Of a DNA stretch of 47,112 nt, positions 2,179 through 46,811 are shown one piece after another. Where the stretch lies: sequence record NC_024210.1. One strand, given 5' to 3'. The notes under the pieces were generated by a model that was not told the DNA's origin, ran no database searches, and worked only from the letters and a program-made list of their open reading frames with translations. Both the position numbers and the translations under genes were made by a program. The number at the start of each line of letters is the position of its first letter. Position 1 is the first letter of the stretch. This stretch comes from Escherichia phage e4/1c.

Positions 2179-2218
2179 CACGAATTGCTAAACACAAGGC
2201 TCATGGATGAGCTATTAT
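2176..2218 (+). promoter_or_regulatory. palindrome-type promoter unit (TAGCACGAATTGCTA, 22 bp, TATTAT) upstream of HNH gene
   Basis: palindrome 2176-2190 starts on terL stop codon TAG; -10-like TATTAT 2213-2218. Confidence 0.5.
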
Positions 2219-2241
2219 TAAAAGAAATGGAGGCGATTAAG

Positions 2242-2720
2242 ATGATTGAAAGATTCTTTGTAGATGATGATTTTTTTGTTAGGTGGGCTGACGGCCCAAA
2301 CAAGGGCAAGGTGGCACAAAAGATATCAAGGAATGGTTACGCAACGGTAAGGGCAAATGAAAAGGTAATGATGGCTCACAGAGTTGTCTATGAGTTAATG
2401 GTTGGTAATATACCTGACGGTATGGACATTGATCACATAAACCACAATAAGCTTGATAATAACCCATCGAACTTAAGGTGTGTAACAAGGTCAGAAAACA
2501 TGAGGAATATGAAAAAACCAGCAATAACACTAGCGGATTTACCGGGGTAACATTCAACAAGTCAAAAGGTAAGTGGCAGTGCCAGGCGCAAATAGATGGA
2601 AAGTATAAGTACTTAGGTTTGTTCGATGATTTAGATCAGGCTATATCAGCAAGGAAGAGATTTAATATTGATAATGGATTTCATGAAAATCATGGCAAGA
2701 CACTAAAAGCCAATGCGTGA
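2242..2720 (+). CDS. HNH-AP2 homing endonuclease, reading frame interrupted by -1 shift at A6 tract (2512-2517)
   Basis: HNH motif region HRVVYELMVGNIPDGMDIDHINHNKLDNNPSNLR in frame of 2185..2550; AP2-like part NTSGFTGVTFNKSKGKWQ continues in ORF 2478..2720; intact paralog at 26791..27294 shows the two parts are contiguous. Confidence 0.6.
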
Positions 2721-2726
2721 TACAAT

Positions 2727-2750
2727 GCCCCTTACTCAGGGGCTTTTTTA
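2727..2750 (+). terminator. rho-independent terminator
   Basis: GC stem gcccc/ggggc followed by T6. Confidence 0.7.
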
Positions 2751-2763
2751 TTGGAGAAATTAC

Positions 2764-3930: not shown

Positions 3931-3974
3931 GGTTAAGATTGGCGAAGGCTCAATTCAAACGGAGGTTGTAATTA

Positions 3975-4739
3975 ATGAATCAGAAGACCCGCTGGATGTA
4001 TCCGCAAACAATTGAGAGCCAGATTAACCGCAGCCTTTTGGTTGCGGTATCTGAACTTATTGAGCAAATGAAGTTATCTGCAAAGAGGCTAAAAATTGAC
4101 ACAGCGCAGGAGATTGAAGAGGAAGATTCAGACCTTTCAGATGTAATCTCAGCGCTGCTATCTGGTTTTGTTTCCACTCTGCCTGCGCTGGCACTAGCAA
4201 TATATCGTTATAACTCGGCGCAATTCCTTAAGGTGGCCAACAACTCCGGAGGTAAGAATAATCCTGTAGTTCTTGCGCTAGGATTGTATGGTATTAACGC
4301 GGATGAACCATGGTGGCTCGACACCAGGAGCTCCTGGATTGTTGGCACGCAGTTAAGTGCATCAAAGCTGCTAAACAACATCAAGGATGATTTCATAAAC
4401 AACGCCATTACTGCGCAGGCTGGTAACACTGTTGACCTTGATGATAGATACCGAATCTACAGAAAGAGAACGGCAAATATCGCTGCTGGAATTACAGGGT
4501 CTCTAAACTCAAACCTTATGCGGAGAAGGCTTGAAGATGCCGGTGTATCTCAGTATGTTTGGCGTGGTAGACTTGACGACAAAGAGCGACCATCTCACGC
4601 TTTGCGTGAGGGGGTTAGCTTTAAATCAGATGGTTCGGACGCTGGAAAACTTGACGGCCTTGCGACATTCCCCGGTCAGCAATACGGGTGTCGTTGCTGG
4701 GCTGTTCCTAAATGGGAGAATTTAATTAATGAAGAGTAA
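3975..4739 (+). CDS. head morphogenesis protein (SPP1 gp7 / Mu F-like)
   Basis: 254 aa; C-terminal motif LREGVSFKSDGSDAGKLDGLATFPGQQYGCRCWAV typical of this family; follows portal. Confidence 0.7.
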   Translation: MNQKTRWMYPQTIESQINRSLLVAVSELIEQMKLSAKRLKIDTAQEIEEEDSDLSDVISALLSGFVSTLPALALAIYRYNSAQFLKVANNSGGKNNPVVLALGLYGINADEPWWLDTRSSWIVGTQLSASKLLNNIKDDFINNAITAQAGNTVDLDDRYRIYRKRTANIAAGITGSLNSNLMRRRLEDAGVSQYVWRGRLDDKERPSHALREGVSFKSDGSDAGKLDGLATFPGQQYGCRCWAVPKWENLINEE

Positions 4740-5838
4740 AATGCGTTATGATAGCGCCAAGGTAAAAGCCCATTTCGATGAGAACGGGTTTCTCGTGGAC
4801 ACTCCAGTGGTTGCTCGCGTAGGTGTACAAACCTACTATATGCCAGATGGTTCAGAGCGCCGAGAGTTCCGTCCGGCTTCAGAGGTTTTTAAAGCTGACT
4901 CCTTGCAAAGCTACCAGGGTAAGCCACTTACTCTGGGGCACGTTGTGGTTAACTCTGAAAATGCTAAAGAGGTTGTCGTTGGTTCTGTATCTGGATCAGC
5001 CATGCGTCAGGATTCGGCAGTGGTTGTTCCTCTTACCGTTTACGACAAGGAGGCAATTGAGAAGGCAAAGTCTGGCGTTGCTGGTGAGCTCTCGGTTGGA
5101 TATAACACCATTGATGTTGAATCTCCTGGTTGGGGCAGCAATGAAACAGGTGAGTATAAGCTGGACGGAGAATACGCAAGTCAGGATGAGATTCCTGCTG
5201 ATTGGGTACGCTTTGATGCACTGCAAACAAATATCGTTGTGAACCATGTCGCTCTTGTATATAAAGGTCGCGCAGGTATTGCTAAACTCAATCTGGACGC
5301 GGAACAGGAAAACCCGTATACTGATACCGTTCAATCAAATAAAGAGGATAAATTGATGATTAAGATTAAACTGGATGGCGAGAAGGAGTTCGAAATCGCC
5401 CCGGAAGTTGCTAAGCACATCGAGGCTGTTAAGGCTGATGCAGAGCAAGCAAAAGCCAAAGCTGACACCCTCGAAGCCGAGCGTGATGCACTGAAAGCTA
5501 AAGTTGATGGCATCCCAGCCGAAATCGAAGCTGCTGTAGCCAAAGCTAAAGCTGACGCTGACGAACTGGCCGCTCTGGTTGCTACCGCCGCAGAAGCTGG
5601 CGTTAAATGTGATGGTCTGGATGCTAAAGCAATCAAAGTTGCTTACGTTAAAGAAGTATCTGGCATTGAAGTTGCTGAGAAATCCGATGCGTACATCGAT
5701 GCGGCCTTTGATATCGCCAAATCTTCTGATAAAATGGCTGAAGCCCGTGTAGCAGTTGCTGGCGCGGAAAAATCTGATGCAGCACCGGAAGTTAAGACTC
5801 TTAACCCGCGTGCTCGCCTCGCTAAATTGAAAAAATAA
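4729..5838 (+). CDS. capsid scaffolding protein (globular N-domain plus Ala/Lys/Glu-rich coiled coil)
   Basis: C-terminal half is low-complexity AKA/EAE-rich heptad-like sequence; position between head morphogenesis gene and capsid genes. Confidence 0.55.
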   Translation: MKSKMRYDSAKVKAHFDENGFLVDTPVVARVGVQTYYMPDGSERREFRPASEVFKADSLQSYQGKPLTLGHVVVNSENAKEVVVGSVSGSAMRQDSAVVVPLTVYDKEAIEKAKSGVAGELSVGYNTIDVESPGWGSNETGEYKLDGEYASQDEIPADWVRFDALQTNIVVNHVALVYKGRAGIAKLNLDAEQENPYTDTVQSNKEDKLMIKIKLDGEKEFEIAPEVAKHIEAVKADAEQAKAKADTLEAERDALKAKVDGIPAEIEAAVAKAKADADELAALVATAAEAGVKCDGLDAKAIKVAYVKEVSGIEVAEKSDAYIDAAFDIAKSSDKMAEARVAVAGAEKSDAAPEVKTLNPRARLAKLKK

Positions 5839-5849
5839 GGAGTCTTAAT

Positions 5850-6374
5850 ATGGCAATTCGTTCCGTAGCACTGGCTGGTATGGTTTCTGACACTTCTCTG
5901 TATAACATCGACGGCGCCTGTGTAGTTGGCGGCGCAGCGGCAATTCCGGTTGGCACTGTCGTTGGTGTTACATCCGCTCAGCCTGTAGATGGTCACAAGG
6001 TTGTTGGCCTTCCCGCCGTAACTGGTACGCCAGTTAAACCTTATGGTGTTGTTGTTAAATCTCATTACGAGACCCCAGATGGTACGGCTCGCTTAAATGA
6101 AGCAGTTAACGTAATGACTCATGGTCGTATCTGGGTCCGCACCACCCTAGCATCTGCGCCAGTTTTTGGTAGCAAGGTTTTCGTAAACGCGAGTGGCGTT
6201 GTTGTTGCTGAGACGGCAGGCACTACTTGGGAGACCGGCTTTACATTTGCTGGCGGTTACGCTTCTGCTTATGCTAATAACGGCACTGACCCAATCAAGC
6301 AAGGTGAAAGCTACGATGGTGCAATCGTTGAGGTTCAGCTGATTCAATCCGCTGACTCAGCTGTCGCAGCTTAA
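5850..6374 (+). CDS. putative head structural/decoration protein
   Basis: 174 aa Gly/Val/Ala/Thr-rich beta-type sequence, strong RBS AAGGAG, in head module; function not resolvable from sequence. Confidence 0.35.
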   Translation: MAIRSVALAGMVSDTSLYNIDGACVVGGAAAIPVGTVVGVTSAQPVDGHKVVGLPAVTGTPVKPYGVVVKSHYETPDGTARLNEAVNVMTHGRIWVRTTLASAPVFGSKVFVNASGVVVAETAGTTWETGFTFAGGYASAYANNGTDPIKQGESYDGAIVEVQLIQSADSAVAA

Positions 6375-6380
6375 TTACAT

Positions 6381-6400
6381 GGCCCTTCGGGGCCTTTTTT
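6381..6400 (+). terminator. rho-independent terminator
   Basis: ggccc-ttcg-gggcc hairpin plus T6. Confidence 0.7.
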
Positions 6401-6413
6401 AATGGAGGCTTTT

Positions 6414-6560
6414 ATGATTTATTCATTCGATAAAATTTCAATCTCATACTACGACTCACCAGAATCTCTTATTGAAGAATTCAATCTCGAGGTTAAGGGT
6501 GTTCTTGATTCTGGTTTCAGGTATTTATATTCAGAACTCGCAGATGTTTTTTACTCATAA
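6414..6560 (+). CDS. hypothetical small protein (48 aa)
   Basis: ATG 6414 right after terminator; not in ORF track (below size cut-off); AT-rich. Confidence 0.25.
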   Translation: MIYSFDKISISYYDSPESLIEEFNLEVKGVLDSGFRYLYSELADVFYS

Positions 6561-6593
6561 CAAGAGTTAGGGCATGAAAAATCCCCAGACATA

Positions 6594-6983
6594 ATGGAGT
6601 CAAGATTCTTTGTGAGAACACTCCCACTCTCGGATAAGTCATCATCTGGAAGGGAAATTGAATCCATAGTTGCCAAGATATATGTTAAAGATATTGATTA
6701 CGGTTATGATGGTGGCCCATCCTTGCAAGAGTTAATTGATTCATTTTGCGTTGAAAATGGTTACGGCTACGTTCCGGCATCCGCAGGATCAAATGCAAGC
6801 GTCATAAATAAGGAAGAGAGTGAACCATTCGCTGTTCTTGAGAACGGGAAGTGGGTAACCTACCATAGAGCAAAGAAAAGACAAGCGACATTTGTGACTT
6901 ACATTAAATACTCAAAAGATTCATTGCAGAAAAAGTCTGGCTGGGCTTTAGTTAAGTACGAAGAAGTTGACGCTCCAGAGTAA
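6594..6983 (+). CDS. hypothetical protein (129 aa), possible moron
   Basis: ORF bracketed by two terminators inside head module; AT-rich relative to neighbours. Confidence 0.4.
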   Translation: MESRFFVRTLPLSDKSSSGREIESIVAKIYVKDIDYGYDGGPSLQELIDSFCVENGYGYVPASAGSNASVINKEESEPFAVLENGKWVTYHRAKKRQATFVTYIKYSKDSLQKKSGWALVKYEEVDAPE

Positions 6984-6988
6984 ATTTA

Positions 6989-7011
6989 AACCTCCTTCGG
7001 GAGGTTTTTTT
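6989..7011 (+). terminator. rho-independent terminator
   Basis: cctcc-ttcg-ggagg hairpin plus T7. Confidence 0.7.
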
Positions 7012-7064
7012 ACACCTATAATCTGTTAGACTTATCAGGTCTATTAACTAATCAGGAGATTAAG

Positions 7065-8582
7065 ATGGCTTTAGAATTTAAGCAAATCCTTGCCGGTAAC
7101 ACAGCTTCACTTAGCCACAAGGTGCTAGAGGCAATTGCGGAAGGTTGGCAGCCGTTCGATAGAGTCTTGACCGGAACTGGATCTAACACTATTGGCATGG
7201 TTGTAGCTAAGGGAACTAACGCAGACATTACCGACTTCATGGTTCTGAGTGCAACCAGTCGCCAAAAGCTAATTGATAGAGTAAATGAAATCACTCACGA
7301 AGGTTGGGAGGTGTTTGGCGAACCTTCATCTGAGTCAAATCAGTTTGCAGTTTCTTTAACTAAGGGTTTTCAGGGTACATCTGGTAGGGATGGAATGGCA
7401 GGACCACAAGGCCCACAAGGTCCACGTGGCGAGGTTGGCCCTGAAGGTCCGCAGGGTCCAAAAGGCGACGATGGTACGCCTGGTGAAAAGGGTGAGCGTG
7501 GAGCGGTAGGGCCACAAGGCACGGTTGGGCCTCAAGGCATTCAGGGACCTCAAGGTATTCAAGGACCAGCCGGATTGAAGGGTGACAAAGGTGATAGGGG
7601 TGATACTGGCCCACAGGGACCGCAAGGCTTGAAGGGTGACACTGGAGAGAAAGGTGATCCTGGCGAAGTCGGGCCTGCTGGTTTAACATTCCGTGGGCAA
7701 TGGGTTCCCGCCACTGATTATACAAAAGATGACACTGTAGTTTACGGTGGATCAACCTACTTCGCAGTTAGCAACATTGCAGCAGATGAGGAGCCTGGAG
7801 TATCACCTTTGTGGGTTGTTCTTGCCGCTCAGGGAACTAAGGGTGATAAGGGTGAAAAAGGTGATCCTGGCGATACTGGGCCTCAAGGCGAGAAAGGTGA
7901 TACAGGACCGCAGGGGCCAAGAGGAATTCAGGGTCAGCAAGGCATTCAAGGCTTGCCTGGTGATCAAGGACCAAAAGGTGATCAAGGATTGCAAGGTATC
8001 GCCGGACCAACCGGACCACAAGGCCCTAAAGGTGATACCGGACCGCAGGGCATTCAAGGTCAGCAGGGTATTCGTGGGTTAACTGGCCCAGCCGGTCCAC
8101 AAGGTCCTCAGGGTGGAAGGGGTGACGATGGCCCTCAGGGTGTAAAAGGTGATAAAGGTGATAAAGGTGATAAAGGTGATGCTCCTTACACATTATTTAA
8201 CTCAAGTAACGTGACGACGACATATATTGAAATACCCATCCCACAAGTAACAAACACTGTCCTAAGGGTTAGGCTTTCTGGTGCCAACTTTGAATACAGC
8301 GTTTTGAGCAAAGGTGGAGCGAATAGATATGTTGACTTTTACACATTCATTCCGTCATTAACCAGTTCAACTGGTAACATCTATACAGGAACGACTACCC
8401 TGACGCCAACTGGTAGCCTTTTTTTGGGTAACTCTCCTGTAGCTCTTGGGTTGAGGGAATTGACAATAACACTCAAGGAGTGGGGTGATAGGACTCTAAC
8501 CACAATAAAGGCTATACATCACGGAAGAACAGGTGATAACACAAGGCCTTTGCAGATAACTATGTTTAGTAATAAGTATTAA
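7065..8582 (+). CDS. collagen-like repeat protein (two Gly-X-Y blocks), putative head/virion fibre
   Basis: 505 aa; long runs GPQGPQGPRGEVGPEGPQGPKGDDG... (approx aa 106-205 and 258-365) separated by a non-collagenous insert; 130-aa C-terminal non-repeat domain. Confidence 0.8.
   Translation: MALEFKQILAGNTASLSHKVLEAIAEGWQPFDRVLTGTGSNTIGMVVAKGTNADITDFMVLSATSRQKLIDRVNEITHEGWEVFGEPSSESNQFAVSLTKGFQGTSGRDGMAGPQGPQGPRGEVGPEGPQGPKGDDGTPGEKGERGAVGPQGTVGPQGIQGPQGIQGPAGLKGDKGDRGDTGPQGPQGLKGDTGEKGDPGEVGPAGLTFRGQWVPATDYTKDDTVVYGGSTYFAVSNIAADEEPGVSPLWVVLAAQGTKGDKGEKGDPGDTGPQGEKGDTGPQGPRGIQGQQGIQGLPGDQGPKGDQGLQGIAGPTGPQGPKGDTGPQGIQGQQGIRGLTGPAGPQGPQGGRGDDGPQGVKGDKGDKGDKGDAPYTLFNSSNVTTTYIEIPIPQVTNTVLRVRLSGANFEYSVLSKGGANRYVDFYTFIPSLTSSTGNIYTGTTTLTPTGSLFLGNSPVALGLRELTITLKEWGDRTLTTIKAIHHGRTGDNTRPLQITMFSNKY
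8148..8179 (+). repeat. tandem 9-bp repeat (GGTGATAAA)x3.5 inside collagen-like gene
   Basis: encodes GDKGDKGDKGD; slippage-prone. Confidence 0.8.
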
Positions 8583-18552: not shown

Positions 18553-18602
18553 TTTAGTGTAGAATGGCATAAATGGTTAAACAAACAACGAGGTTATATG
18601 AT

Positions 18603-21600
18603 ATGGCCGATTTGCCAAAGATTTATGGAAGCAAGGGTGGCAGCCAAAAGCAGCACACGCCAGTAGAGCAAGAAGATAACCTTATTTCACTTAACAAGAT
18701 TAAGGTTCTGCTTGCGGTTGCTGATGGTGAGGTTGACTCTAGCTTCTCGCTTAAGGATGTTTACCTTGCTGACGTTCCAGTTCAGAACCAGGACAACTCA
18801 TTCAACTATGAAGGTGTGACAGCTGAGTTTCGCCCCGGCACTCAATCCCAAGATTACATCGCAGGACTAGATGGCGCGGCATCAGAGATTCAGGTTAGTC
18901 GTGAAATTAACAACGACACACCTTACATCATCGGAGTTAACAACAGTCAGTTGTCAGCAATCCGTGTAAAGCTGTTCTGGCCTCGTCTCGTTAAGCAAGA
19001 AGAGAATGGAGATTTAAATGGTACAAAATGTGAATATGCAATCGATTTATCAGTTAATGGCTCAGCGTACACTGAATACACCAGAGGCGTGGCTAACGGT
19101 AAAACTACAACAGGTTACGACCGCAGTATCAGGGTTAACTTACCAGCCGAGTTTAGCAGCGCTCTTGTTCGTATTAGGAAGCTAACTCCTGACTCAAAAA
19201 GCAGCACGCTGGTGAACGGAATGCAGATTACAACCTATCAGGAAGTAATCGACGCTAAATTCCGCTACCCTCTTACAGCACTTGTTTATGTGGAGTTCAG
19301 TTCTGACCTGTTCCCTAATGGCATCCCAACGATAGCCATTAAGAAGAAGTGGAAGCTTATCCGCGTGCCGACAAATTACAATCCAGAGACAAGGACTTAT
19401 AGCGGTACATGGGATGGCACTTTTAAAATGGCATGGTCTGACAACCCGGCATGGGTTTTATATGACCTGGTGGTTAGCCAGCGTTACGGTTTAGATCAGC
19501 GAGAACTTGGTGTAGAGATTGATAAATGGGGGCTGTATGAAGCGGCGCAATTCTGTGACCAGATGGTTCCGGATGGTAATGGTGGAATGGAGCCGCGATA
19601 TACTTGTAACGTTGTCATTCAGCAGAAAGTGGAGGCGTATCAGCTTATTCGTGACATCTGTTCTATCTTCCGCGGTTTAACCTTCTACGATGGTGAGCAA
19701 ATCGGTATTGTTGTAGACAGGCCGCGCCAGCCTAGCTATGTGTTTACCAATGATAACGTTGTTGATGGTTTGTTTAACAGGACCTTCTCTAGTGATAAGT
19801 CTCTTTACACTACAGCAAACGTTCAGTTTGATGACGTAGAGAATAACTATCAGCAAGATGTTGAACCAGTGTTCGACCTTGAGGCAACTCGCCGCTTTGG
19901 TTATAACCCTGTAGATCTGACTGCAATTGGATGTGTAAGGCGTAGTGAGGCTAACCGTCGAGGTCGATGGCTGCTTAAAACAAACCTACGCAGTGAAACG
20001 GTAACTTTCACAACTGGCCTCGAAGGCATGATTCCGATGATTGGTGATGTAATTGCTGTCAATGACCAGGCCTGGTCTAGCAACTACACGTTAAACCTTT
20101 CTGGTCGAATCGTTGAGGCTGCAGGTTTGCAGGTTTTTGTACCATTCGCTATTGATGCGGACCCGGGCGACAGGATTTTAATCAACAAGCCAGATGGAAT
20201 CCCAGAGTACAGGACTATCGCTTCCGTATCTGCCGATAAGTTGACGCTTGAACTGAATACAGCATTCAGCTTCACGCCGCAGCCAGATACAGTATTTGCA
20301 ATAGACAAGCAGAATCTGGCTTTACAGAAGTATGTGGTGACCGGGATTCAAAAAGCTAACACGGACGGAGAGGACTCATTCCAGTACAGCATCACAGCCG
20401 TTCAGTATGACCCTAACAAGTACGATGAGATTGACTACGGTGTAAACATCGACGACAGGCCAACAAGCATCGTTGACCCTGACAGGATTTTGCCACCGCA
20501 GAACATCACCGTTACTAGCTACAGCAAGGTAGTTCAGGGTTTAAGCGTTGAGACGATGGTTATTGGTTACGACAAGGTGCAGTATGCGAAAACATACAAC
20601 GTACAATGGCGTAAGAACAATGGTAACTGGATTAACGTACCAGAGACGGCTAACACTGAGGTTGATATTGAAGGCATTTACGCTGGCATTTACGACGTCA
20701 GGGTTCGTGCTGTAACTGACCAGAAATCAGTGTCTGCATGGTCTGATATCACGACAGTCAGCTTGACTGGCAAGATTGGAGAGCCATCAGCGCCTCCTGT
20801 AATTACCGCATCTGATGATGAGGTCTTCGGGATTAGGGTTAGGTGGGGCTTCCCTACTGACTCAGCCGATACTGCGTACACCGAGCTTCAGCAGGTTCCG
20901 GATAATGGTGACGGTACATACAATCCAGAGAATGCATCACTGCTTACGCTGGTTCCTTACCCGCAGTATGAGTACTGGCACACAACTTTACCAGCAGGTA
21001 ACGTGAGGTGGTACAGGGCAAGGATTATTGACAGGATAGGTAACGTATCTCCATGGACTGATTTTGTCAGGGGTATGGCATCTGATGATGTAAGTGCAAT
21101 CATTGGCGACATCAAGGTTGATATAGAAAACTCCGATGGGTACAAGTATCTTCTCCAGAACGCTATTGATGCAAATACTGACATCCAGAACCAGGCCGAA
21201 GCAATAATCGAGAATGCCCTGGCAAACGACACTGATGTTCGCGTTATGAAGCGCGAGAATGGGGCAAGGAAGGCTGAATATCGCCAAGCTGTAAGTTTGA
21301 TTGCTGATGAAACTCAAGCGCGTGTAGACGCTCTCACGGAGCTTAAAGCGCAGATTGATGATGAGATTGTTGGTCAGATTACGACAATTGAGACCGCGCT
21401 AGCTACTGAGACCGAAGCAAGGGCTACAGCTGATACGGCTCTCAGTGCAAGGCTTGGGGATAACGAGGCGGCTTTGAATCAGAAGCTTGACTCTTATGCC
21501 ACAGTCGAAGGCGTTGGTGTTCAGTACGGCGTTAAGCTAGGCCTGAAGTACAATGGAGTTGAGTATGGCGCTGGTATGAGCATGGAGTTAACTGGTAGCG

Positions 21601-21989
21601 GTGGAAATGTTCGTAGTCAGTTCATTTTCGATGCTAACAGGTTCGCAATCAGCAACGGTATTAGTTCTGGTTCCGGTCAGTGGTCGCTGCCTTTCGTTGT
21701 CGAGAGTAACCAGGTATTCATCCAGAGCGCGGTGATTCAGGACGGCTCAATCACTAACGCGAAGATTGGCAACCGCATTCAATCAAACAACTATATACAA
21801 GGAAGTCAGGGGTGGGCGATTGATAAATCAGGAAGTGCTGAGCTAAACAATGCCACTGTTAGAGGAAGCTTATATGCAAGCAATGGTAACTTTGCATTTA
21901 ACGGAACAAATAACACAGTAGTAATCAACAACAATGGCATCACAGTTAACTTACCGGGAGGTGGAAGGGTTGTAGTTGGCGTGTGGTAA
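18603..21989 (+). CDS. tail tip / central fibre protein (lambda J-like)
   Basis: about 1128 aa; N-terminal GSKGGSQKQHTPVEQEDNL resembles J-type N-termini; last gene of lambda-like tail block. Confidence 0.85.
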   Translation: MADLPKIYGSKGGSQKQHTPVEQEDNLISLNKIKVLLAVADGEVDSSFSLKDVYLADVPVQNQDNSFNYEGVTAEFRPGTQSQDYIAGLDGAASEIQVSREINNDTPYIIGVNNSQLSAIRVKLFWPRLVKQEENGDLNGTKCEYAIDLSVNGSAYTEYTRGVANGKTTTGYDRSIRVNLPAEFSSALVRIRKLTPDSKSSTLVNGMQITTYQEVIDAKFRYPLTALVYVEFSSDLFPNGIPTIAIKKKWKLIRVPTNYNPETRTYSGTWDGTFKMAWSDNPAWVLYDLVVSQRYGLDQRELGVEIDKWGLYEAAQFCDQMVPDGNGGMEPRYTCNVVIQQKVEAYQLIRDICSIFRGLTFYDGEQIGIVVDRPRQPSYVFTNDNVVDGLFNRTFSSDKSLYTTANVQFDDVENNYQQDVEPVFDLEATRRFGYNPVDLTAIGCVRRSEANRRGRWLLKTNLRSETVTFTTGLEGMIPMIGDVIAVNDQAWSSNYTLNLSGRIVEAAGLQVFVPFAIDADPGDRILINKPDGIPEYRTIASVSADKLTLELNTAFSFTPQPDTVFAIDKQNLALQKYVVTGIQKANTDGEDSFQYSITAVQYDPNKYDEIDYGVNIDDRPTSIVDPDRILPPQNITVTSYSKVVQGLSVETMVIGYDKVQYAKTYNVQWRKNNGNWINVPETANTEVDIEGIYAGIYDVRVRAVTDQKSVSAWSDITTVSLTGKIGEPSAPPVITASDDEVFGIRVRWGFPTDSADTAYTELQQVPDNGDGTYNPENASLLTLVPYPQYEYWHTTLPAGNVRWYRARIIDRIGNVSPWTDFVRGMASDDVSAIIGDIKVDIENSDGYKYLLQNAIDANTDIQNQAEAIIENALANDTDVRVMKRENGARKAEYRQAVSLIADETQARVDALTELKAQIDDEIVGQITTIETALATETEARATADTALSARLGDNEAALNQKLDSYATVEGVGVQYGVKLGLKYNGVEYGAGMSMELTGSGGNVRSQFIFDANRFAISNGISSGSGQWSLPFVVESNQVFIQSAVIQDGSITNAKIGNRIQSNNYIQGSQGWAIDKSGSAELNNATVRGSLYASNGNFAFNGTNNTVVINNNGITVNLPGGGRVVVGVW

Positions 21990-21996
21990 TTGATTA

Positions 21997-22017
21997 AGCC
22001 CCTTTCGGGGCTTTTTC
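21997..22017 (+). terminator. terminator between convergent J and RBP genes
   Basis: agcccc-tttc-ggggct plus T-run. Confidence 0.7.
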
Positions 22018-22019
22018 TT

Positions 22020-22982
22020 TTAGTAGAAGTTTGGTATGAATGGTAGAGCCATTGATATGTTTGTATCGAATGGGAATTGTGCGCCAGTTTGAGTTGAATA
22101 GTTACCTATAACAGTACCAGGAACGGCTCTAACTGAACCGCCAGACATGCAAACACCCTTGTATCGTAAGTTATTATAGCCACCAGTGACTCTAGTTGTC
22201 GCTCCGCATCTAAGTATTGGGAAGAACCCACCATTAACTGACTGGTAACCATTACTAATCTGCATGAATCCACTTAGAACAAATGGCCTCCTGACGCTAG
22301 AGAAAACTATCTGCCCAGCGCTGTTTGATATCGTTAAACCCGGACCAGCTACTGGAGGTGTATTATTGAAAATAACCAACTGAACGTAAGTACTTGCAGC
22401 AACATCATCAATCCCATTGTACGTTATATCCCTGCACCATATCGTACTACCATCACTTTCAAGGGATACGTTTGGGTTATCCCATTTACCAAAAGGAATG
22501 CCGCCAACTGGCAATGATGCAGAGCCATTAACCTGGATACCACCAACCCAAGCAGCAGTCATTAATCTGGAATTGCTTGATATCGCTGTAAAGTCAGTCG
22601 AGTTCTCAATAAGGACACCAGGGCTTGATTGTGAGGATGCTGGTAAAATCTCAAAGCACTGACCGCCAAACTGTAATATGCGACCATTAGCACCGTTAAA
22701 GTTACTTAATGTAATCCTTCCAACCCCATCGTTAACCTTCGAGAACCCATTCATGTAATAAACTTCTGGTATAACATCATATGCATCAACATAAACAGCC
22801 TGAGTTGGCAGGCAGAATGCTGTTGAGCCAGGAGTCATAGTCAAACCGAAATCCCATGATGATGCTGGTGAGCTTAACCCACTAGTGTTTATTGAACCAG
22901 TCACGGCTGGGACTCTCAAACCCGCCGTTATTTCCATTGGCGGCCTTCCATCATTCAAATCTATCAAGATACCCTGAGGCAT
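22020..22982 (-). CDS. putative receptor-binding protein (RBP)
   Basis: 320 aa from ATG 22982 with RBS AAGGAG; Gly/Ser/Thr/Asn-rich beta-type protein; located downstream of J on the opposite strand and translationally coupled to a lipoprotein gene. Confidence 0.45.
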   Translation of the reverse strand: MPQGILIDLNDGRPPMEITAGLRVPAVTGSINTSGLSSPASSWDFGLTMTPGSTAFCLPTQAVYVDAYDVIPEVYYMNGFSKVNDGVGRITLSNFNGANGRILQFGGQCFEILPASSQSSPGVLIENSTDFTAISSNSRLMTAAWVGGIQVNGSASLPVGGIPFGKWDNPNVSLESDGSTIWCRDITYNGIDDVAASTYVQLVIFNNTPPVAGPGLTISNSAGQIVFSSVRRPFVLSGFMQISNGYQSVNGGFFPILRCGATTRVTGGYNNLRYKGVCMSGGSVRAVPGTVIGNYSTQTGAQFPFDTNISMALPFIPNFY

Positions 22983-23227
22983 TATTTCCACTCCTTAGAT
23001 CCGTGATCTGCAACTGAACCGCCGTAGCCTCCACCAACCTTTGACTCAATACCAGCATAACGAATATCAACCTCTCCAGCTGGAACAATAACGCCACCTT
23101 TCCACTTAGCTACGCATACACCAGAGGCCTGAGTTGCACACCATCCGTCAGGGCGCGGGCCAGAAGAACAACCTACTGTCATTATTACTGCTGTTGCGAT
23201 GATTGCTGATTTGATGAATTTGGTCAT
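22982..23227 (-). CDS. Cor/Llp-like superinfection-exclusion lipoprotein (putative)
   Basis: 81 aa; N-terminal [20 protein letters not shown] signal with lipobox-like VGC, Ser at +2; stop overlaps RBP start. Confidence 0.5.
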
Positions 23228-23267
23228 TTTGTATTCCTTATTAAGTATGTTTCGTTTCGATGGAGTA

Positions 23268-23311
23268 ACTATAGCAAAGGCCGATGCGGGAGTCTTTAGC
23301 AAATCGTGCTA
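23268..23311 (-). promoter_or_regulatory. palindrome-type promoter unit for lipoprotein-RBP operon
   Basis: minus-strand TAGCACGATTTGCTA (23297-23311), 23 bp, TATAGT, then CCATCGAAACGA leader. Confidence 0.5.
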
Positions 23312-23315
23312 TTTG

Positions 23316-23470
23316 ATATACGCGTAACCGATGTAACTCGATGTATACAATCTAATCCGAGGAAAATTGTATACGCTTTTTACGCGAGGATACGCATTAG
23401 TTACATTTATAAATCCTTATATATTAAGGGTTTAGAGTATTATTATTATTATATATATTACTATGTATAT
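23316..23470. repeat. regulatory repeat region A (homologous to 43180-43330)
   Basis: shares TATACGCGTA... and a near-identical 60-bp segment ATCCTTATATAT.AAGG..TTAGA.TATTATTATTATTATATATA with region B. Confidence 0.7.
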
Positions 23471-23760
23471 CTTGTAACTAATCTCTATAGCTATGTTGGT
23501 ATGTTTTTCTAAAAGACTATGTTTGATTTCCTGTTAAGGAGTAGATGCATATAGATATAGATATGGTGCAAAAGTGGTGGATACATTGGTTACAAGAGTT
23601 ACACTCAGCATCCATGCGGCGCACAGAGTTGCAAAGCGTATTCAGGTGCGTTTTACGTAGATATACAGATAGCTTTTTTGGTTTATTAATGAGCATTTAT
23701 TGGCAATTAAAGCGGTAGTTAATATCAATATTGCTACCTTGATTGCTAATGCCTGGCATG

Positions 23761-23804
23761 CGGTCAATAAAAATGTTGACTGTACGGTCAATAAAAATGT
23801 TGAC
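23761..23804 (+). promoter_or_regulatory. tandem 20-bp operator-like repeat (CGGTCAATAAAAATGTTGAC x2)
   Basis: two identical copies separated by 4 bp; each contains inverted arms GTCAA/TTGAC; second copy provides the -35 of the early promoter. Confidence 0.6.
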
Positions 23805-23828
23805 CGATTGAAATTTTTTCAGTAAATT
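23800..23828 (+). promoter_or_regulatory. sigma70-type early promoter (TTGACC, 17 bp, TAAATT)
   Basis: canonical spacing; followed by TCATCGATACGAG leader and gene at 23864. Confidence 0.6.
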
Positions 23829-23863
23829 TAGCTCATCGATACGAGCATGGGGTACGGCAGGAA

Positions 23864-24235
23864 ATGAGATTAACAAAGATTGAGATTATGAAGGTTTTAT
23901 CAGGCCATCCTGATTACGAATTTAAGTTATGGGAGGTTGGGGGCTTACCGATAGAGGCTAGAGATCTTTCTTATATAATGTTTGGTCACGAGGAAGGTGG
24001 AAAGAAGTCAAAAATGACTTGTTGTAAGCAAGCTCTAGATAGGATGGTAAATGATGGTTATCTGGAGTCGTCAAAGGTAACTATAAAACCACATACAGTT
24101 GATAACAGAAGCATGAGGGCGACTGTAAGCAGGTACAGAGTTAAGGGCTCTAACATTAGTTGGTTTAAGAAAACTGACGAATTTGCGAAGTGCAGAGAGA
24201 TAACGCTAACTAAAGAGGATTACAAAAGTGAGTAA
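23864..24235 (+). CDS. hypothetical early protein (123 aa)
   Basis: first gene downstream of early promoter; possible DNA-binding fold not confirmable. Confidence 0.5.
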   Translation: MRLTKIEIMKVLSGHPDYEFKLWEVGGLPIEARDLSYIMFGHEEGGKKSKMTCCKQALDRMVNDGYLESSKVTIKPHTVDNRSMRATVSRYRVKGSNISWFKKTDEFAKCREITLTKEDYKSE

Positions 24236-24806
24236 AGACATGATTTCAATTGTTGATTATTGCAACGCTTTATCATTTAAGCCAGCATTAGTTATTAAGG
24301 CTATAGAAGAAATTATTTGCTTTGATAAAGGAAGCCTCGCTGAGTGGGTTGATGGGATTTGCTTTATGAACAAAAGATTAATGATAGCCGTAACAACAAA
24401 GATCGATACTTCAAAGATTTATCTGGTGCTTGATTATATGGATAGGGTTGAGTCTGAGGTTAAAGATAGATTCAACACAATGGTTCAACTAAAAATTGAG
24501 AATGCAGTGGCGAGAGTTAATAATCAGCTAGCAATTGAAATGGCTCATAGTGAGCGACTTCATAAGCAGGCTGATATCTACTACAAGCAATTATCAAGAC
24601 TTGAGAGCAAGAAAACTACAGCAGAGTGCGTAAAGGAAGCTAACGCATCAGAACGCCAGGCATGGAACGATAGATGCAATGAACGCGAGGATGTCTTAGT
24701 CGCTAGGGCAAACATTCAGTCTCTTGAGCAAAAGGAGAAGATACTTCTTGCTAGTTCTGGTATTTCGTACCAATCAAGAGAATTCCTGGCTATAGGTAAA
24801 AACTAA
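24228..24806 (+). CDS. hypothetical early protein (192 aa), coiled-coil C-terminus
   Basis: overlapping start (GTG 24228 with RBS AAGAGGA, or ATG 24240). Confidence 0.5.
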   Translation: MSKDMISIVDYCNALSFKPALVIKAIEEIICFDKGSLAEWVDGICFMNKRLMIAVTTKIDTSKIYLVLDYMDRVESEVKDRFNTMVQLKIENAVARVNNQLAIEMAHSERLHKQADIYYKQLSRLESKKTTAECVKEANASERQAWNDRCNEREDVLVARANIQSLEQKEKILLASSGISYQSREFLAIGKN

Positions 24807-27728: not shown

Positions 27729-27752
27729 AAAGCCCCTTTCGGGGCTTTTTTT
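27729..27752. terminator. bidirectional terminator between ssb and tail fibre gene
   Basis: agcccc-tttc-ggggct flanked by A-run upstream and T7 downstream. Confidence 0.7.
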
Positions 27753-30468
27753 ATTGCGATGTTACATCACCATTCAAGCTCAAAGATACTGATTGTTTTG
27801 TCAAATCAACACCACCTTTAAGTGAATAGTATCTTGAAGCGCAATAATCAGACTCATCTGAATAGCCGCCAACGTACACACCAAATCCATATCCAGAGCA
27901 AGCTACATCACCACCACCTTGACCTGAGTACATGGTAACATAATTACCAGCTGTTGTTAGTATAGGTCTGACATCAATATCTATATACTGAGAATCAAAT
28001 GACCTTCTAATTCTAAATCCAGTATTCAGGTTTAAGATGCTCCACCAAATCTTGCCGGATACATCAAAACCAAGAGCGATATTATAAATACCACCATTGA
28101 CCATTCTTGATGAGACTGGCAACACACCTGATAAAACTCTTGTTTCACCTGATGCTGATATTAACAATGATACACTGTGTTCTCCTGATGCCATCACGTT
28201 ATACTGCAAGTAAAGAGCATTACTATTAACTCCAAAACCAGTCCCTATAGCCATAAGGTTAAAGTCTTCAGCAACAGTTATGGTCGGCGATATATTGCAT
28301 GTAGCGGTGAAACCTAGTGACGGGTCAAATCCAGTGCATATAATCTTATCTTTATTTGCCTGTGAAAGCCTTAGCCAATATTGCTGCCCAACTGATGATG
28401 CCGCCGCGGCGAATACTGGTGTATTAGAGACCCCATCAAAAGCTGAAGTGTCGTTTGCTGGCTTAATTCTTGTCTTCCTTTTGTCTATTAGTCCGTTTAT
28501 CTTCAGGTTTCCTGAATACTCAGAAACATAGTTAGTGTCCCCTGAGAAATTTGGGCCAAAGTAACCAGATTCAACAACCCCATCGATCACAACATCAGAT
28601 CTTGAGTCAAGGAATCTGAAGTTGCCAGCGGAAGTTGGCCTTCCATCGCCATTGTTAGATACATAGTTAAGCCCAACAAAACCATAGATTCTTACAGAGC
28701 TATTTGAAAACGAAACGTTATAATCTCTGTAGTTTGAGTTTATGCTGTTCCTGTTACTATTTAATCCATTAAATACCACATTTCTAGAGTTTACAATTCT
28801 AACTCCGTCACCACCGCAATCCTGTGCTTCTATAGCTGACATGGTGATGTTTTGGCAGTTATCAACCAGGATGCCATAAGCATCATCAAGCTCATTGTAA
28901 GGCGACCAACCTGACCAAATAAACTTACCGCCAACAATCCTACAGTTTCCGGCATTCCTAAGTATTAGACAATTTCTTCCACAGGTGTTTACCTGTATGT
29001 TATTCCATGTGAAGTCTGTTGTTTCGTTAATCAATCCGTCTTTTTTTATGTGCTGAATAAGAACATCATCAAGAACGGGAGAGTAGTTACCAGCAGCAAC
29101 GAAAATTCCGTAAACATCAAACCCAGCAATGTGAGTGTTTCTTATCGTTAAGTCCCTCCTAGGGTCAGCACCAGCGTTGAATGGGTAATTGGTTGATAAC
29201 CCAGTCGGCGTAGGGATGTAAATCCCAGCAGTACCATCAGTAAACGCCGTGTCTTGCTGGGCTCCAGTGCCGTAAAGAGCAATTCCTTCAATATGAATGA
29301 GCGAGCAAGAATCAGATACCTCAATTAAAGAGCCAATTGATGAACTAAGCTGAGTTATTCTTGATTTGTGCTTGCCAAAACCAATTATAGAGCAAGATTT
29401 ATTTCTCATTACCAGGTTTGATGCCATGTAGTCGCTATTAAGCTTTAATGCCAGCCCAGAGTCTAGGATTTGCTGTATCTGTGTCGTTGAGTCTGATGTC
29501 GATGACTTAATAGCTCCAAGTTCGCAAGGCGACAGCTCCCCGCTACAGATTCTTTCCCAGTAATAACCGGTACTTGATTCAAAAACCAACCCTGAAGATA
29601 ATCCATATGATAACGATGACTCCGGCTTACAAACAAAGAACCCACCACCATAACCAAGACCACCAATGTAAGAATCACAATAGACAACCTCTAAGTCATA
29701 AATTCTGGCAGAGTTGGTCATTGCTGATACTGATTCAAACCTTCTTGTGTAATCCTGTTGAATCCAAAAACCAACTCCAATACCACCTGTAGACTGTGGT
29801 GATGAGTTTTGTGGTATGGATTTTGGAACGCTACCAGACCAGTAATAAACCGAAACATGATTGTCATTAAAGTAAATTGCAGGCTGAGTTCTTGAGTTTA
29901 TTTCTCCACCATTTGAGAAATCAACTACAAGAGCAGATGACACAGAAGCCGCAGCAGAGCTTGCTATTGTAGCTGAAGAGGAAGCCGAGTTAGCGCTACT
30001 TTCAGCTAACTGCCTATCAGAAGATGCCTGATCTTTGTCAGAAGAAACTTGAGCAGCATCAACAGCAACTTGCTGAGATTGCATGTTGACATTATTTACG
30101 CTTTGCTGGAAAGAATCAGAATCAAATTGATTAAAAGCATCAACTGCCGCTGCAACCTCTGTTTCACGGGACTGATAATAACGAAGTGTCTCAGCAACAT
30201 CCTGAGCAAGACCTTGGACAGTAATTCCGTCATGAGCAAGGATTGAGTACTGAGTCCCAGCTGGCGCAGTAAAACCTTTATCATTGAACACACGAATCTC
30301 TGTATCGCTTAAAATCTCAGCGATAGTAACAATGGTTGTCGGGGTGGTGTTAAAAATCATTGTTGCGCCAACTCGGATTAGCGTTAGTGGTTGCCTCCAC
30401 GTGGTGCCAACACCAGTTACAGTTCCGTCAGCCGCAAGCGATGCAGTTCCAGCGTCATAAATTGCCAT
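27751..30468 (-). CDS. lateral tail fibre / tailspike with beta-helix-like central domain
   Basis: about 905 aa from ATG 30468; N-terminus MAIYDAGTASLAADGTVTGVGTTW typical of tail fibre anchors; repeated N/G/I-rich segments consistent with a parallel beta-helix. Confidence 0.65.
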   Translation of the reverse strand: MAIYDAGTASLAADGTVTGVGTTWRQPLTLIRVGATMIFNTTPTTIVTIAEILSDTEIRVFNDKGFTAPAGTQYSILAHDGITVQGLAQDVAETLRYYQSRETEVAAAVDAFNQFDSDSFQQSVNNVNMQSQQVAVDAAQVSSDKDQASSDRQLAESSANSASSSATIASSAAASVSSALVVDFSNGGEINSRTQPAIYFNDNHVSVYYWSGSVPKSIPQNSSPQSTGGIGVGFWIQQDYTRRFESVSAMTNSARIYDLEVVYCDSYIGGLGYGGGFFVCKPESSLSYGLSSGLVFESSTGYYWERICSGELSPCELGAIKSSTSDSTTQIQQILDSGLALKLNSDYMASNLVMRNKSCSIIGFGKHKSRITQLSSSIGSLIEVSDSCSLIHIEGIALYGTGAQQDTAFTDGTAGIYIPTPTGLSTNYPFNAGADPRRDLTIRNTHIAGFDVYGIFVAAGNYSPVLDDVLIQHIKKDGLINETTDFTWNNIQVNTCGRNCLILRNAGNCRIVGGKFIWSGWSPYNELDDAYGILVDNCQNITMSAIEAQDCGGDGVRIVNSRNVVFNGLNSNRNSINSNYRDYNVSFSNSSVRIYGFVGLNYVSNNGDGRPTSAGNFRFLDSRSDVVIDGVVESGYFGPNFSGDTNYVSEYSGNLKINGLIDKRKTRIKPANDTSAFDGVSNTPVFAAAASSVGQQYWLRLSQANKDKIICTGFDPSLGFTATCNISPTITVAEDFNLMAIGTGFGVNSNALYLQYNVMASGEHSVSLLISASGETRVLSGVLPVSSRMVNGGIYNIALGFDVSGKIWWSILNLNTGFRIRRSFDSQYIDIDVRPILTTAGNYVTMYSGQGGGDVACSGYGFGVYVGGYSDESDYCASRYYSLKGGVDLTKQSVSLSLNGDVTSQ

Positions 30469-30492
30469 TATGTAAATTCTCCATTTGTAAAA

Positions 30493-30507
30493 TAGCACGA
30501 ATTGCTA
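30493..30507. promoter_or_regulatory. palindrome TAGCACGAATTGCTA in 5' region of tail fibre gene (atypical placement)
   Basis: perfect copy about 25 bp upstream of tail fibre start codon, downstream of a TACAAT -10-like hexamer on the minus strand. Confidence 0.4.
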
Positions 30508-46735: not shown

Positions 46736-46811
46736 GTTCTGCTGGCGTAACAGGATAACGCAGAGACCTCCTAAGTCTCAGTTACTGGTTCGAGTCCAGT
46801 GCGGAACGCCA
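46736..46811 (+). tRNA. tRNA-Arg (anticodon CCT), CCA encoded
   Basis: manual cloverleaf: acceptor GTTCTGC/GCGGAAC (one G-U), D-arm GCGT-AACAGGATA-ACGC, anticodon stem GAGAC/GTCTC with loop CTCCTAA, T-arm ACTGG-TTCGAGT-CCAGT, discriminator G then CCA. Confidence 0.7.

Follow-up and report, generated by a model that had tools for sequence, protein, structure and literature searches.

An LptD-type receptor-binding protein gene predicted to be coupled to a Rtp45-family exclusion lipoprotein gene in Escherichia phage e4/1c

Two overlapping genes of Escherichia phage e4/1c very probably constitute a module of the small T1-like siphophages in which a receptor-binding protein (RBP) of the LptD type is paired with an exclusion lipoprotein that blocks LptD. 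The module itself is already known, having been described by Maffei 2021, Black 2025 and Dunbar 2025, and the present locus is a real but ordinary instance of it. The window analysed here is the whole stretch of 47,112 nucleotides (NC_024210.1) from a Rogunavirus-like coliphage of the T1 family, whose DNA is about 92% identical to that of AKS96 and Rogue1. A preliminary description had proposed, at 22020-23227, an RBP co-expressed with a lipoprotein that blocks the phage's own receptor. This reading is supported by matches of the two proteins to structures solved on LptDE (9RPT and 9RPS) and by the LptD dependence of the related phage OzMSK, and the coordinates are exact, with an 81-aa and a 320-aa gene lying downstream of J on the opposite strand (Table 1). 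FhuA or BtuB, the receptors named at that stage, give way to LptD, which is indicated by the DUF6453 and PF24052 families to which the two proteins belong and by OzMSK.

Table 1. Features of the RBP and lipoprotein locus (window positions)
Feature	Position	Strand	Details or basis
J-like central tail fibre/tail-tip protein gene, predicted RBP carrier	18573..21989	+	1138 aa
J-like protein C-terminal 40 residues SLYASNGNFAFNGTNNTVVINNNGITVNLPGGGRVVVGVW, putative docking site of the DUF6453 RBP	21867..21989	+	co-conservation
Terminator hairpin, GC-rich, separating the ends of J and the RBP gene	21996..22013	.	AAGCCCC-TTTC-GGGGCTT; terminator scan
RBP gene	22020..22982	-	320 aa plus stop; DUF6453 family, predicted terminal receptor LptD
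Translational-coupling junction GGAGTGGAAATAATG	22980..22994	-	sequence
Lipoprotein gene	22982..23227	-	81 aa plus stop; Rtp45 family, superinfection exclusion
Codon of the putative lipid-anchor residue Cys20 of the lipoprotein	23170..23168	-	lipobox
Candidate promoter/operator region of the lipoprotein-RBP operon	23396..23482	.	palindrome and inverted repeat

Both genes are convergent to the gene of a J-like protein that carries the Pfam domains FNIII-A_GpJ, Phage-tail_3 and Phage_Tail_Tip and falls into PHROG 31 ('central tail fiber J'). A distance of 30 nt separates the stop of the RBP gene (22020) from that of J (21989), and the counterpart of the intervening hairpin is annotated in AHP24 as a terminator on both strands; an Rfam scan gave no match in the locus. 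The lipoprotein gene starts with an ATG at 23227, preceded by AAGGA 7 bases 5', and ends with a TAA (22984..22982) whose last A is the first base of the RBP ATG (22982..22980). The 1-nt overlap described earlier is thus seen as a TAATG, and the strong ribosome-binding site ascribed to the 320-aa gene corresponds to a GGAG (22994..22991) located 8 bases 5' of its ATG, within the last codons of the lipoprotein gene. Judged from the sequence of this junction, the two genes are translationally coupled. The same TAATG occurs in AHP24, OzMSK, JeanPiccard and AugustePiccard, while SH6 has a 2-nt gap instead. Pfam E-values of 1e-139 and 7e-38 for the two products, together with hundreds of phage homologs, show that both open reading frames are real genes and did not arise by chance.

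The 320-aa protein is, as had been noted, rich in Gly, Ser, Thr and Asn (37% in sum) and belongs to Pfam PF20051 (DUF6453; E 1.4e-139; 465 bits, cutoff 25), its residues 4-297 aligning to positions 1-291 of the 291 in the profile; an NCBIfam scan yielded no family for this protein or for the lipoprotein. It is 98% identical to the RBP of Rogue1 and matches chain C of PDB 9RPT, the RBP of Oekolampad (RBP_Oeko) solved on LptDE (PMC12685063), over residues 2-320 (phmmer, E 4.2e-67), at a moderate identity of approximately 45% as aligned by HMMER and 29% in the Foldseek comparison of the resolved part. The structure prediction called for in the preliminary description bears this out: the AF2 model (pLDDT 86, pTM 0.86) is all-beta, its sole significant Foldseek match in the PDB is 9rpt_C (E 3.5e-20), and the two superimpose with a target-normalised TM of 0.90 and an rmsd of 2.6 Å. 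In the conservation profile of DUF6453 the base is conserved and the tip variable, as reported by Black et al. 2025 (PMC13035648), and the receptor-contacting loops are the most variable parts.

Public annotation offers another identity for this protein, since PHROG 1265 bears the label 'membrane protein; moron, auxiliary metabolic gene and host takeover', RefSeq homologs are named 'membrane protein', and the gene lies on the strand opposite to the tail genes. That it is a non-virion moron product and that J itself binds the receptor is nevertheless extremely improbable. The protein contains no hydrophobic segment (maximum Kyte-Doolittle mean over 19 residues, 0.95), on which ground we reject the membrane protein annotation, and its AF2 model is that of a soluble all-beta protein. 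Moreover, DUF6453 genes adjoin gpJ in either orientation: they are convergent to it in OzMSK, Bas01, Bas02, SH6 and AHP24, and in Citrobacter prophages they directly follow J on the same strand, inside the tail operon. No lipoprotein homolog was found within 6 kb of the DUF6453 gene in these prophages.

The 81-aa protein matches Pfam PF24052 over positions 1-80 of the 80 in the profile (E 7e-38) and chain D of PDB 9RPS, which is Rtp45 on LptDE (E 3.6e-34; PMC12685063). The protein is 79% identical to Rtp45 over its whole length and 84% in the mature part; residues 20-43 are identical, including 30-35, which in Rtp45 form a strand pairing with LptD 318-323 (PMC12685063). Cys30 and Cys38, linked by a disulfide in Rtp45 (PMC12685063), occupy the positions of a conserved pair, and Cys20 is likewise present. 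Relative to Rtp45, the protein has a Gly-rich insertion of five residues at positions 61-65 (SKVGGGYGG versus GSSG). The lipobox and the Ser at +2 that had been pointed out are both there: a hydrophobic signal peptide (residues 1-19, with a core of mean Kyte-Doolittle value 2.0) precedes Cys20, which has Ser at +2 and +3. As the +2 residue is Ser and not Asp, the protein conforms to the sorting rule for the outer membrane; by these sequence rules it is probably lipidated on Cys20 and sorted there.

The lipoprotein had also been called Cor/Llp-like, which holds as a functional analogy and not as sequence homology. In its strict form, this reading would have the protein inactivate FhuA or another TonB-dependent transporter and so exclude other phages rather than its own kind. 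Size, lipoprotein nature and genomic position are indeed those of T1 cor (reverse strand, just after the J locus), and some homolog records, such as that of vB_Ec-G8, bear the label 'Cor superinfection exclusion protein'. BLASTP, however, aligned only the signal peptide and lipobox with T1 Cor (20 bits, with a 13-residue gap) and only 22 signal-peptide residues with T5 Llp. Pfam returned PF24052 only, with no Cor family at E<=1, and the mature part is that of an LptDE-bound protein. We regard the Cor/Llp-type function as very unlikely. On the RBP side, BLASTP against T5 pb5 gave a best E of 4.3, and T1 gp31, the FhuA-type RBP, was rejected as a relative since it is unrelated by BLASTP.

LptD is the predicted terminal receptor of the 320-aa protein. 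The RBP families for LptD, FhuA, BtuB and YncD are reported to be mutually unrelated (bioRxiv 10.64898/2026.04.02.716166), so that membership in DUF6453 is informative on the receptor, and all experimentally typed members of the family map to LptD (bioRxiv 10.64898/2026.04.02.716166). YncD was rejected as a receptor for DUF6453 proteins because its RBP family is among those reported as unrelated (bioRxiv 10.64898/2026.04.02.716166). Infection by Bas01, Bas02 and Bas18 depends on LptD (PMC8594841), OzMSK cannot infect two independent LptD loop-deletion mutants (PMC13035648), and the RBP of Rogue1 had earlier been predicted to be LptD-specific (PMC13035648; PMC8594841).

We considered whether tip loops of the Rogue1 type, diverged from those of Oekolampad and Rtp, might instead recognise a different terminal receptor, or a second one besides LptD. 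Within the family, variation is greatest in the tip segments, the RBPs of JeanPiccard and AugustePiccard share only some 42% identity with the present one, and the Rogunavirinae phage Phagiculus uses FhuA, which shows that the RBP locus is swapped within the subfamily. In addition, Bas01, a phage with the LptD locus, also needs NupG, a requirement that acts via its J protein (bioRxiv 10.64898/2026.04.02.716166), so LptD may not be the sole requirement. Against this reading stands the RBP of OzMSK, which differs from the present one by scattered substitutions only and whose phage is stopped by either loop deletion, as well as the uniform LptD assignment of typed family members and their lack of relationship to the FhuA, BtuB and YncD families. 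The NupG need was mapped to a special C-terminal domain of J, whereas the J-like protein here has an ordinary LptD-type C-terminus. A different or additional receptor is therefore improbable, if somewhat less so than the alternatives discussed above, and LptD is retained as the predicted terminal receptor.

The claim that the RBP would define host range can be kept for the terminal receptor and not for the range of strains infected. LptD is an essential and conserved protein, and the RBP would be only partly host-range-defining; which strains are infected more likely depends on a separate tailspike (27751..30498) and on host immunity (cf. PMC8594841).

The C-terminus of the J-like protein is the putative docking site of the RBP. 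Its tip motif was present in every DUF6453 carrier examined (OzMSK, JeanPiccard, AugustePiccard, SH6 and a Citrobacter prophage), the last 54-60 residues of their J proteins being 65-88% identical to those of the present one, and was absent from the FhuA-type J of T1. The J protein of the Citrobacter prophage is otherwise only 34-50% identical, yet keeps the motif. Given this co-conservation, the conserved base of the RBP (residues 1-30, 121-140 and 161-235) may dock on the tip of J, which is consistent with bioRxiv 10.64898/2026.04.02.716166.

Based on these homologies, we propose the following model, in which (i) both genes would be expressed from one leftward transcript starting in the intergenic region 5' of the lipoprotein gene; (ii) the RBP would be a monomeric, all-beta, two-sandwich protein with a tip made up of the variable stretches 31-50, 61-110, 241-270 and 291-310; (iii) the lipoprotein would be exported, lipidated and, having Ser at +2, placed in the inner leaflet of the outer membrane; (iv) like Rtp45, it would bind periplasmic LptD near strands 5-8, between LptE and LptM, and send a hairpin up the LptD lumen, shifting extracellular loop 4 by up to approximately 20 Å; (v) this shift would block RBP binding, as suggested by the high identity to the solved Rtp45. 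The infected cell and its debris would then no longer adsorb this or other LptD-dependent phages, so that superinfection would be excluded and progeny spared loss on debris. In the literature consulted, it is the structure and not plating assays that supports exclusion by proteins of the Rtp45 family (PMC12685063), and AlphaFold3 mispredicts Rtp45 and its complex, according to Dunbar et al. (PMC12685063).

The region 5' of the lipoprotein gene is a non-coding intergenic stretch of 636 bp. A palindrome-type promoter had been proposed for the pair, and an AT-rich palindrome with overlapping 9/12 sigma-70-like matches on both strands is indeed present at 23444-23463, between the arms of a perfect inverted repeat of 10 nt, ATTAGTTACA/TGTAACTAAT (23396-23405 and 23473-23482). 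Its function as a promoter is another matter: a consensus scan found 4 promoter-like sites in the region against 6.4 ± 3.0 expected, which is not above chance and so permits no promoter claim. The AHP24 annotators predicted a promoter at the equivalent position. With up to one mismatch, ATTAGTTACA is enriched in the window (11 copies versus 4.0 ± 2.0), and clustering is confined to the three copies in 23396-23594, so that a genome-wide operator cannot be argued.

The ancestries of the two genes are discordant. Relative to the pair described here, SH6 has an RBP that is 68% identical and a lipoprotein that is 44% identical, AugustePiccard shows the opposite (43% and 83%), and the values for Klebsiella Webervirus are 31% and 54%. 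One tentative explanation, which we consider possible but do not favour, is that the RBP and the exclusion lipoprotein are independently exchangeable LptD-directed parts rather than a co-evolving pair. If this were true, lipoproteins of the Rtp45 type would act as general blockers of LptD and cause cross-exclusion among all LptD-dependent phages, and LptD would be an unrecognised terminal receptor of Kuravirus podophages, whose adsorption is currently thought to end on the LPS core. Webervirus siphophages of Klebsiella and Kuravirus podophages of the phiEco32/SU10 type carry both the DUF6453 and the PF24052 family, in these cases unlinked. The DUF6453 gene of phiEco32 comes after gp20 ('tail tip fiber'), a gene in the tail-needle position by gene-order analogy to SU10.

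The terminal receptor and self-exclusion gene of a Rogunavirus-like isolate can thus be read from its genome. This may be used for picking non-redundant cocktail phages and for predicting cross-resistance, be it through lptD loop mutations or through Rtp45-like lipoproteins of co-infecting phages. Many public records name such genes 'membrane protein', 'hypothetical' or 'Cor', which is correctable. The biological interest lies in the use of an essential, conserved LPS translocon as a phage receptor, already established by Maffei 2021, Black 2025 and Dunbar 2025.

Among known systems, the pair of OzMSK (vB_ecoS_OzMSK / MSK, PQ659294; PMC13035648) is closest: its RBP gp038 is 87.5% identical over the same 320 aa with no indels, its lipoprotein gp039 (81 aa, 90% identical) shares the Gly-rich insertion, and gene order, TAATG overlap and position convergent to J are all as here. 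A DNA methylase gene oriented like the pair lies immediately upstream of it in OzMSK, where the present phage has the non-coding region. Rtp44/Rtp45 of Rtp, near-identical to the pairs of AugustePiccard (Bas01) and JeanPiccard (Bas02), share the locus type, the 1-nt overlap and a 79-83% identical lipoprotein; in these phages, however, the RBP has 311 aa and is only about 42% identical, the lipoprotein has 76 aa and lacks the five-residue insertion, and a methyltransferase gene lies upstream. RBP_Oeko/SE_Oeko of the Dhillonvirus Oekolampad (Bas18; PDB 9RPT, 9RPW, 9RQI; PMC12685063) share the RBP family and fold, with a strongly conserved N-terminus and central sheet and divergent tip loops, but belong to another phage group whose lipoproteins are only about 35-38% identical.

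With Cor of T1, phi80 and N15 the pair shares the slot immediately after J, the reverse-strand orientation of cor and the presumed role. The T1 proteins (gp32, gp31 and Cor) are nevertheless unrelated to those described here, the receptor is FhuA, the J C-terminus is different, and the RBP genes of T1 share the strand of J and are separate from cor. The logic of T5 pb5 (oad) and Llp is also shared, namely a monomeric siphophage tail-tip RBP and, encoded by an adjacent gene, a small periplasm-facing outer-membrane lipoprotein that disables the receptor. In contrast to the present system, pb5 and Llp, which have no sequence homology to it, are directed at FhuA and not at LptD; Llp exerts a long-range allosteric effect via the plug, while Rtp45 physically displaces loop EL4 (PMC12685063); and the T5 genes are divergent with separate promoters, whereas the two genes here would form one coupled operon.

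The small lipoprotein and the glycine-, serine-, threonine- and asparagine-rich protein encoded downstream of the tail-tip gene J had been read in a preliminary description as an exclusion lipoprotein and a receptor-binding protein (RBP), and homology to the structurally characterised RBP of PDB entry 9RPT and to the exclusion lipoprotein Rtp45, together with data on the related phage OzMSK, supports this reading, with the outer-membrane protein LptD as the predicted receptor. As a module, the LptD RBP/lipoprotein pair has been described before, with structures solved for close relatives. The window is an essentially complete genome, that of a T1-like, Rogunavirus-type siphophage; AKS96, AHP42, Rogue1 and relatives are about 92% identical to bases 12000-36000 (88-89% of the length covered), and AHP24 and Rogue1 match the RBP/lipoprotein region at 94.6%. 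Re-deriving the ORF layout from the sequence reproduced the earlier coordinates and description of both genes exactly: they lie on the minus strand, convergent to J, the 81-aa lipoprotein gene is upstream, its TAA shares one base with the RBP ATG (TAATG), and Gly, Ser, Thr and Asn make up 37% of the 320-aa RBP, whose gene has a ribosome-binding site. The one-base overlap and the internal Shine-Dalgarno sequence indicate translational coupling of the two genes. The TAATG junction is also present in AHP24, OzMSK, JeanPiccard and AugustePiccard, and SH6 has a 2-nt gap instead.

The RBP is a full-length member of Pfam family DUF6453 (E 1.4e-139), and in a PDB search its residues 2-320 matched chain C of 9RPT, 9RPW and 9RQI (E 4.2e-67), which together with 9RPS are entries of Dunbar et al. 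2025 (PNAS, PMC12685063). Structure prediction, proposed earlier as a check, gave a confident, all-beta AlphaFold2 model (alignment input of 76 homologs; pLDDT 86, pTM 0.86), whose sole significant PDB match was the LptDE-bound RBP 9rpt_C (E 3.5e-20; TM 0.90 normalised to the resolved chain). The 76-sequence alignment shows conservation at the N-terminus (residues 1-30), at residues 121-140 and at residues 161-235, and variability at residues 31-50, 61-110, 241-270 and 291-310, in agreement with the conserved base and variable tip described by Black et al. (PMC13035648). The RefSeq and PHROG labels 'membrane protein' and 'moron, auxiliary metabolic gene and host takeover' are misleading for this protein, because it contains no hydrophobic or transmembrane segment. 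Database annotation commonly lists DUF6453 members as 'membrane protein' or 'moron' (NC_019718, NC_024784, phrog_1265) and the lipoprotein sometimes as 'Cor', labels that conflict with the solved structures and the absent transmembrane segment.

The lipoprotein has a hydrophobic signal peptide and a lipobox Cys20 with Ser at +2, belongs over its full length to PF24052, 'Phage lipoprotein family' (E 7e-38), and matches 9RPS chain D (E 3.6e-34, PDB search), which is Rtp45, the superinfection-exclusion lipoprotein of phage Rtp, located on the periplasmic side of LptDE (PMC12685063). Identity to Rtp45 is 79% over the whole protein and 84% over the mature part, with Cys20, Cys30 and Cys38 in common. 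In Rtp45, residues 30-35 pair in a beta-sheet with LptD 318-323, and Cys30 and Cys38 form a disulfide (PMC12685063); the identical stretch of residues 20-43 spans both elements. The only difference of note is that the window protein has five additional residues, rich in Gly, at a site where Rtp45 reads K-----GSSG.

In small siphophages, terminal-receptor specificity is encoded by the locus directly downstream of gpJ, one allele of which is associated with LptD (Maffei et al. 2021, PMC8594841). Since the RBPs associated with FhuA, BtuB, LptD and YncD form four unrelated protein families (2026 preprint, 10.64898/2026.04.02.716166), family membership is informative on the receptor. The closest experimentally typed relative, OzMSK, which is unable to infect either of two strains with LptD loop deletions (Black et al. 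2025, PMC13035648), has an RBP of equal length that is 87.5% identical, with scattered substitutions and no indels, and a lipoprotein that is 90% identical. Black et al. 2025 (PMC13035648) also list, among RBPs predicted to bind LptD, that of Rogue1, which is 98% identical to the RBP of the window. Family membership, the LptD dependence of OzMSK and the Rogue1 prediction support LptD, with high confidence, as the predicted terminal receptor. Bas01 (AugustePiccard), an LptD-locus phage, additionally needs NupG via a special J domain (preprint 10.64898/2026.04.02.716166). Phagiculus, the sole Rogunavirinae phage in the receptor screen, was typed as FhuA-dependent (bioRxiv 10.64898/2026.04.02.716166, supplement); RBP loci are thus swapped between members of Rogunavirinae, and the receptor cannot be predicted from taxonomy alone. 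The earlier expectation that the RBP would define host range stands for the terminal receptor, but the RBP is unlikely to be the sole determinant: a separate 915-aa tailspike-like protein probably serves as a lateral fibre or spike against the O-antigen and determines strain range.

Based on these homologies, we propose that (i) the RBP tip would bind LptD; (ii) the lipoprotein would reach the inner leaflet of the outer membrane; (iii) there it would bind LptD between LptE and LptM and (iv) displace the LptD loop EL4, so that the RBP could not bind (steps iii and iv by homology, PMC12685063). The RBP base would dock on the C-terminal tip of J. The 40-residue C-terminus of J (LYAxxGxFAFNGTNNTVxINxNGITVNLPxGGRVVVGxW) is common to every DUF6453-carrying phage examined, is kept in a Citrobacter prophage with only 34-50% identity in the rest of J, and is absent from the FhuA-type J of T1. 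Co-conservation of this motif and the RBP base points to the J tip as the docking site, as likewise suggested by a 2026 preprint (10.64898/2026.04.02.716166).

Identities of the two proteins to their homologs are discordant: 43% (RBP) and 83% (lipoprotein) for AugustePiccard, 42% and 75% for JeanPiccard, 68% and 44% for SH6, and 31-32% and 54% for Klebsiella Webervirus phages. This implies that recombination separates RBP and exclusion genes despite their overlap, and one lipoprotein clade serves very different RBPs. The Webervirus siphophages have both families, separated by about 10 kb. The DUF6453 gene of lambdoid prophages in Citrobacter, Salmonella and E. coli directly follows J on the same strand and precedes a tail-fibre gene; no Rtp45-family homolog lies within 6 kb of it in the Citrobacter and Salmonella prophages, but the 40-residue C-terminal motif of J is kept. 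Records PP134917 (Pseudomonas phage PsgS01F) and MG065671/MG065675 (Campylobacter phages A120/A118) hold typical coliphage LptD modules. The PsgS01F RBP is 89% identical to that of the window, in a record with the length of an E. coli phage record (44,679 bp); the host labels of all three look doubtful.

Both families also occur, about 45 kb apart, in phiEco32/SU10-like Kuravirus podophages. The phiEco32 protein gp21 genuinely belongs to DUF6453 (Pfam E 1.2e-23) and has 9RPT_C as its only PDB relative; its gene directly follows that of gp20. The latter protein carries the annotation 'tail tip fiber', and gene order suggests it as the counterpart of gp18, the SU10 tail needle. The SU10 virion paper assigns gp18 as needle and gp20-24 as ejection proteins and never mentions gp19, the expected slot of the DUF6453 homolog by gene order. 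No Kuravirus-LptD connection appeared in the literature searched; LptD may be the terminal receptor of these podophages, a lead rather than a finding. We regard a modular, cross-excluding LptD toolkit extending to Kuravirus podophages as a tentative and rather doubtful proposition.

Upstream of the pair, OzMSK, AugustePiccard and JeanPiccard (Bas02) carry a DNA methyltransferase gene on the same strand, whereas the window has a non-coding region. The 'palindrome-type promoter' proposed earlier was not borne out: the palindrome exists, but promoter-like matches in a consensus scan of the RBP/lipoprotein region were not above chance, and therefore neither promoter nor expression timing can be stated. 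Each CGGTCAATAAAAATGTTGAC repeat holds the inverted repeat GTCAA-N9-TTGAC, and the two, located about 60-100 nt upstream of a rightward ORF, resemble operator sites in tandem that overlap a TTGAC -35 element. This ORF and the one overlapping it have no Pfam match; their place in AHP24 is taken by an ORF of 52 aa and a 'regulatory protein' of 209 aa, and this stretch seems to be one site of divergence from the closest relatives.

Coordinates of features in the window and in related genomes
Feature	Record	Coordinates	Strand	Remarks
J-like tail-tip gene	window	18573..21989	+	Pfam FNIII-A_GpJ, Phage-tail_3, Phage_Tail_Tip; PHROG 31
GC-rich hairpin	window	21996-22013		between convergent J and RBP genes
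RBP ORF, 320 aa	window	22982..22020	-	GGAG 8 bases 5' of ATG
Lipoprotein ORF, 81 aa	window	23227..22982	-	AAGGA 7 bases 5' of ATG
Non-coding divergent region, 636 bp	window	23228-23863		AT-rich; upstream of lipoprotein gene
Inverted repeat GTATACAAT/ATTGTATAC	window	around 23344-23376		
Inverted repeat ATTAGTTACA/TGTAACTAAT	window	23396-23405 / 23473-23482		perfect, 10 nt; flanks palindrome
AT-rich palindrome	window	23444-23463		overlapping 9/12 promoter-like matches on both strands
Third near-copy of ATTAGTTACA/TGTAACTAAT repeat	window	23585-23594		
Two direct repeats CGGTCAATAAAAATGTTGAC	window	23761-23804		perfect, 20 nt; 24 nt spacing
ORF, 123 aa	window	23864..24235	+	rightward
Overlapping ORF pair, 123 aa and 192 aa	window	23864-24806	+	
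Tailspike-like protein, 915 aa	window	27751-30498	-	Tail_spike_N and right-handed beta-helix
tRNA-Arg (anticodon CCT)	window	46736-46811	+	near right genome end; sole RNA gene by ARAGORN and Rfam
SH6 pair	L009 (Shigella phage SH6)	2501-3690		compared with AugustePiccard pair
AugustePiccard pair	L004 (AugustePiccard)	2001-3166		
RBP homolog, Klebsiella phage mtp9	OX335400	20541-21494		
Lipoprotein, Klebsiella phage mtp9	OX335400	10772-11002		
RBP homolog, Klebsiella phage Trimon	PV340598	19788-20741		
Lipoprotein, Klebsiella phage Trimon	PV340598	30345-30575		
Citrobacter prophage loci	L007, L008 (prophage contigs)	2825-8199		
phiEco32 gp21, DUF6453 homolog	L010 (EU330206)	3947-4978		
phiEco32 lipoprotein homolog, Rtp45 family	phiEco32	66089-66256		38-48% identical

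Sequence comparison shows no relation of the RBP to pb5 or T1 gp31, and a relation to these proteins is rejected. The lipoprotein had been called Cor/Llp-like, which holds as a functional analogy and for the shared genomic slot but not as homology: BLASTP against T1 Cor and T5 Llp aligned the signal peptide and lipobox only. The likeness in genomic slot lies in T1 cor, which immediately follows the J locus and is likewise reverse-strand. The mechanisms differ as well: Rtp45 sterically displaces EL4, whereas the effect of Llp is allosteric and runs through FhuA (Dunbar et al., PMC12685063).
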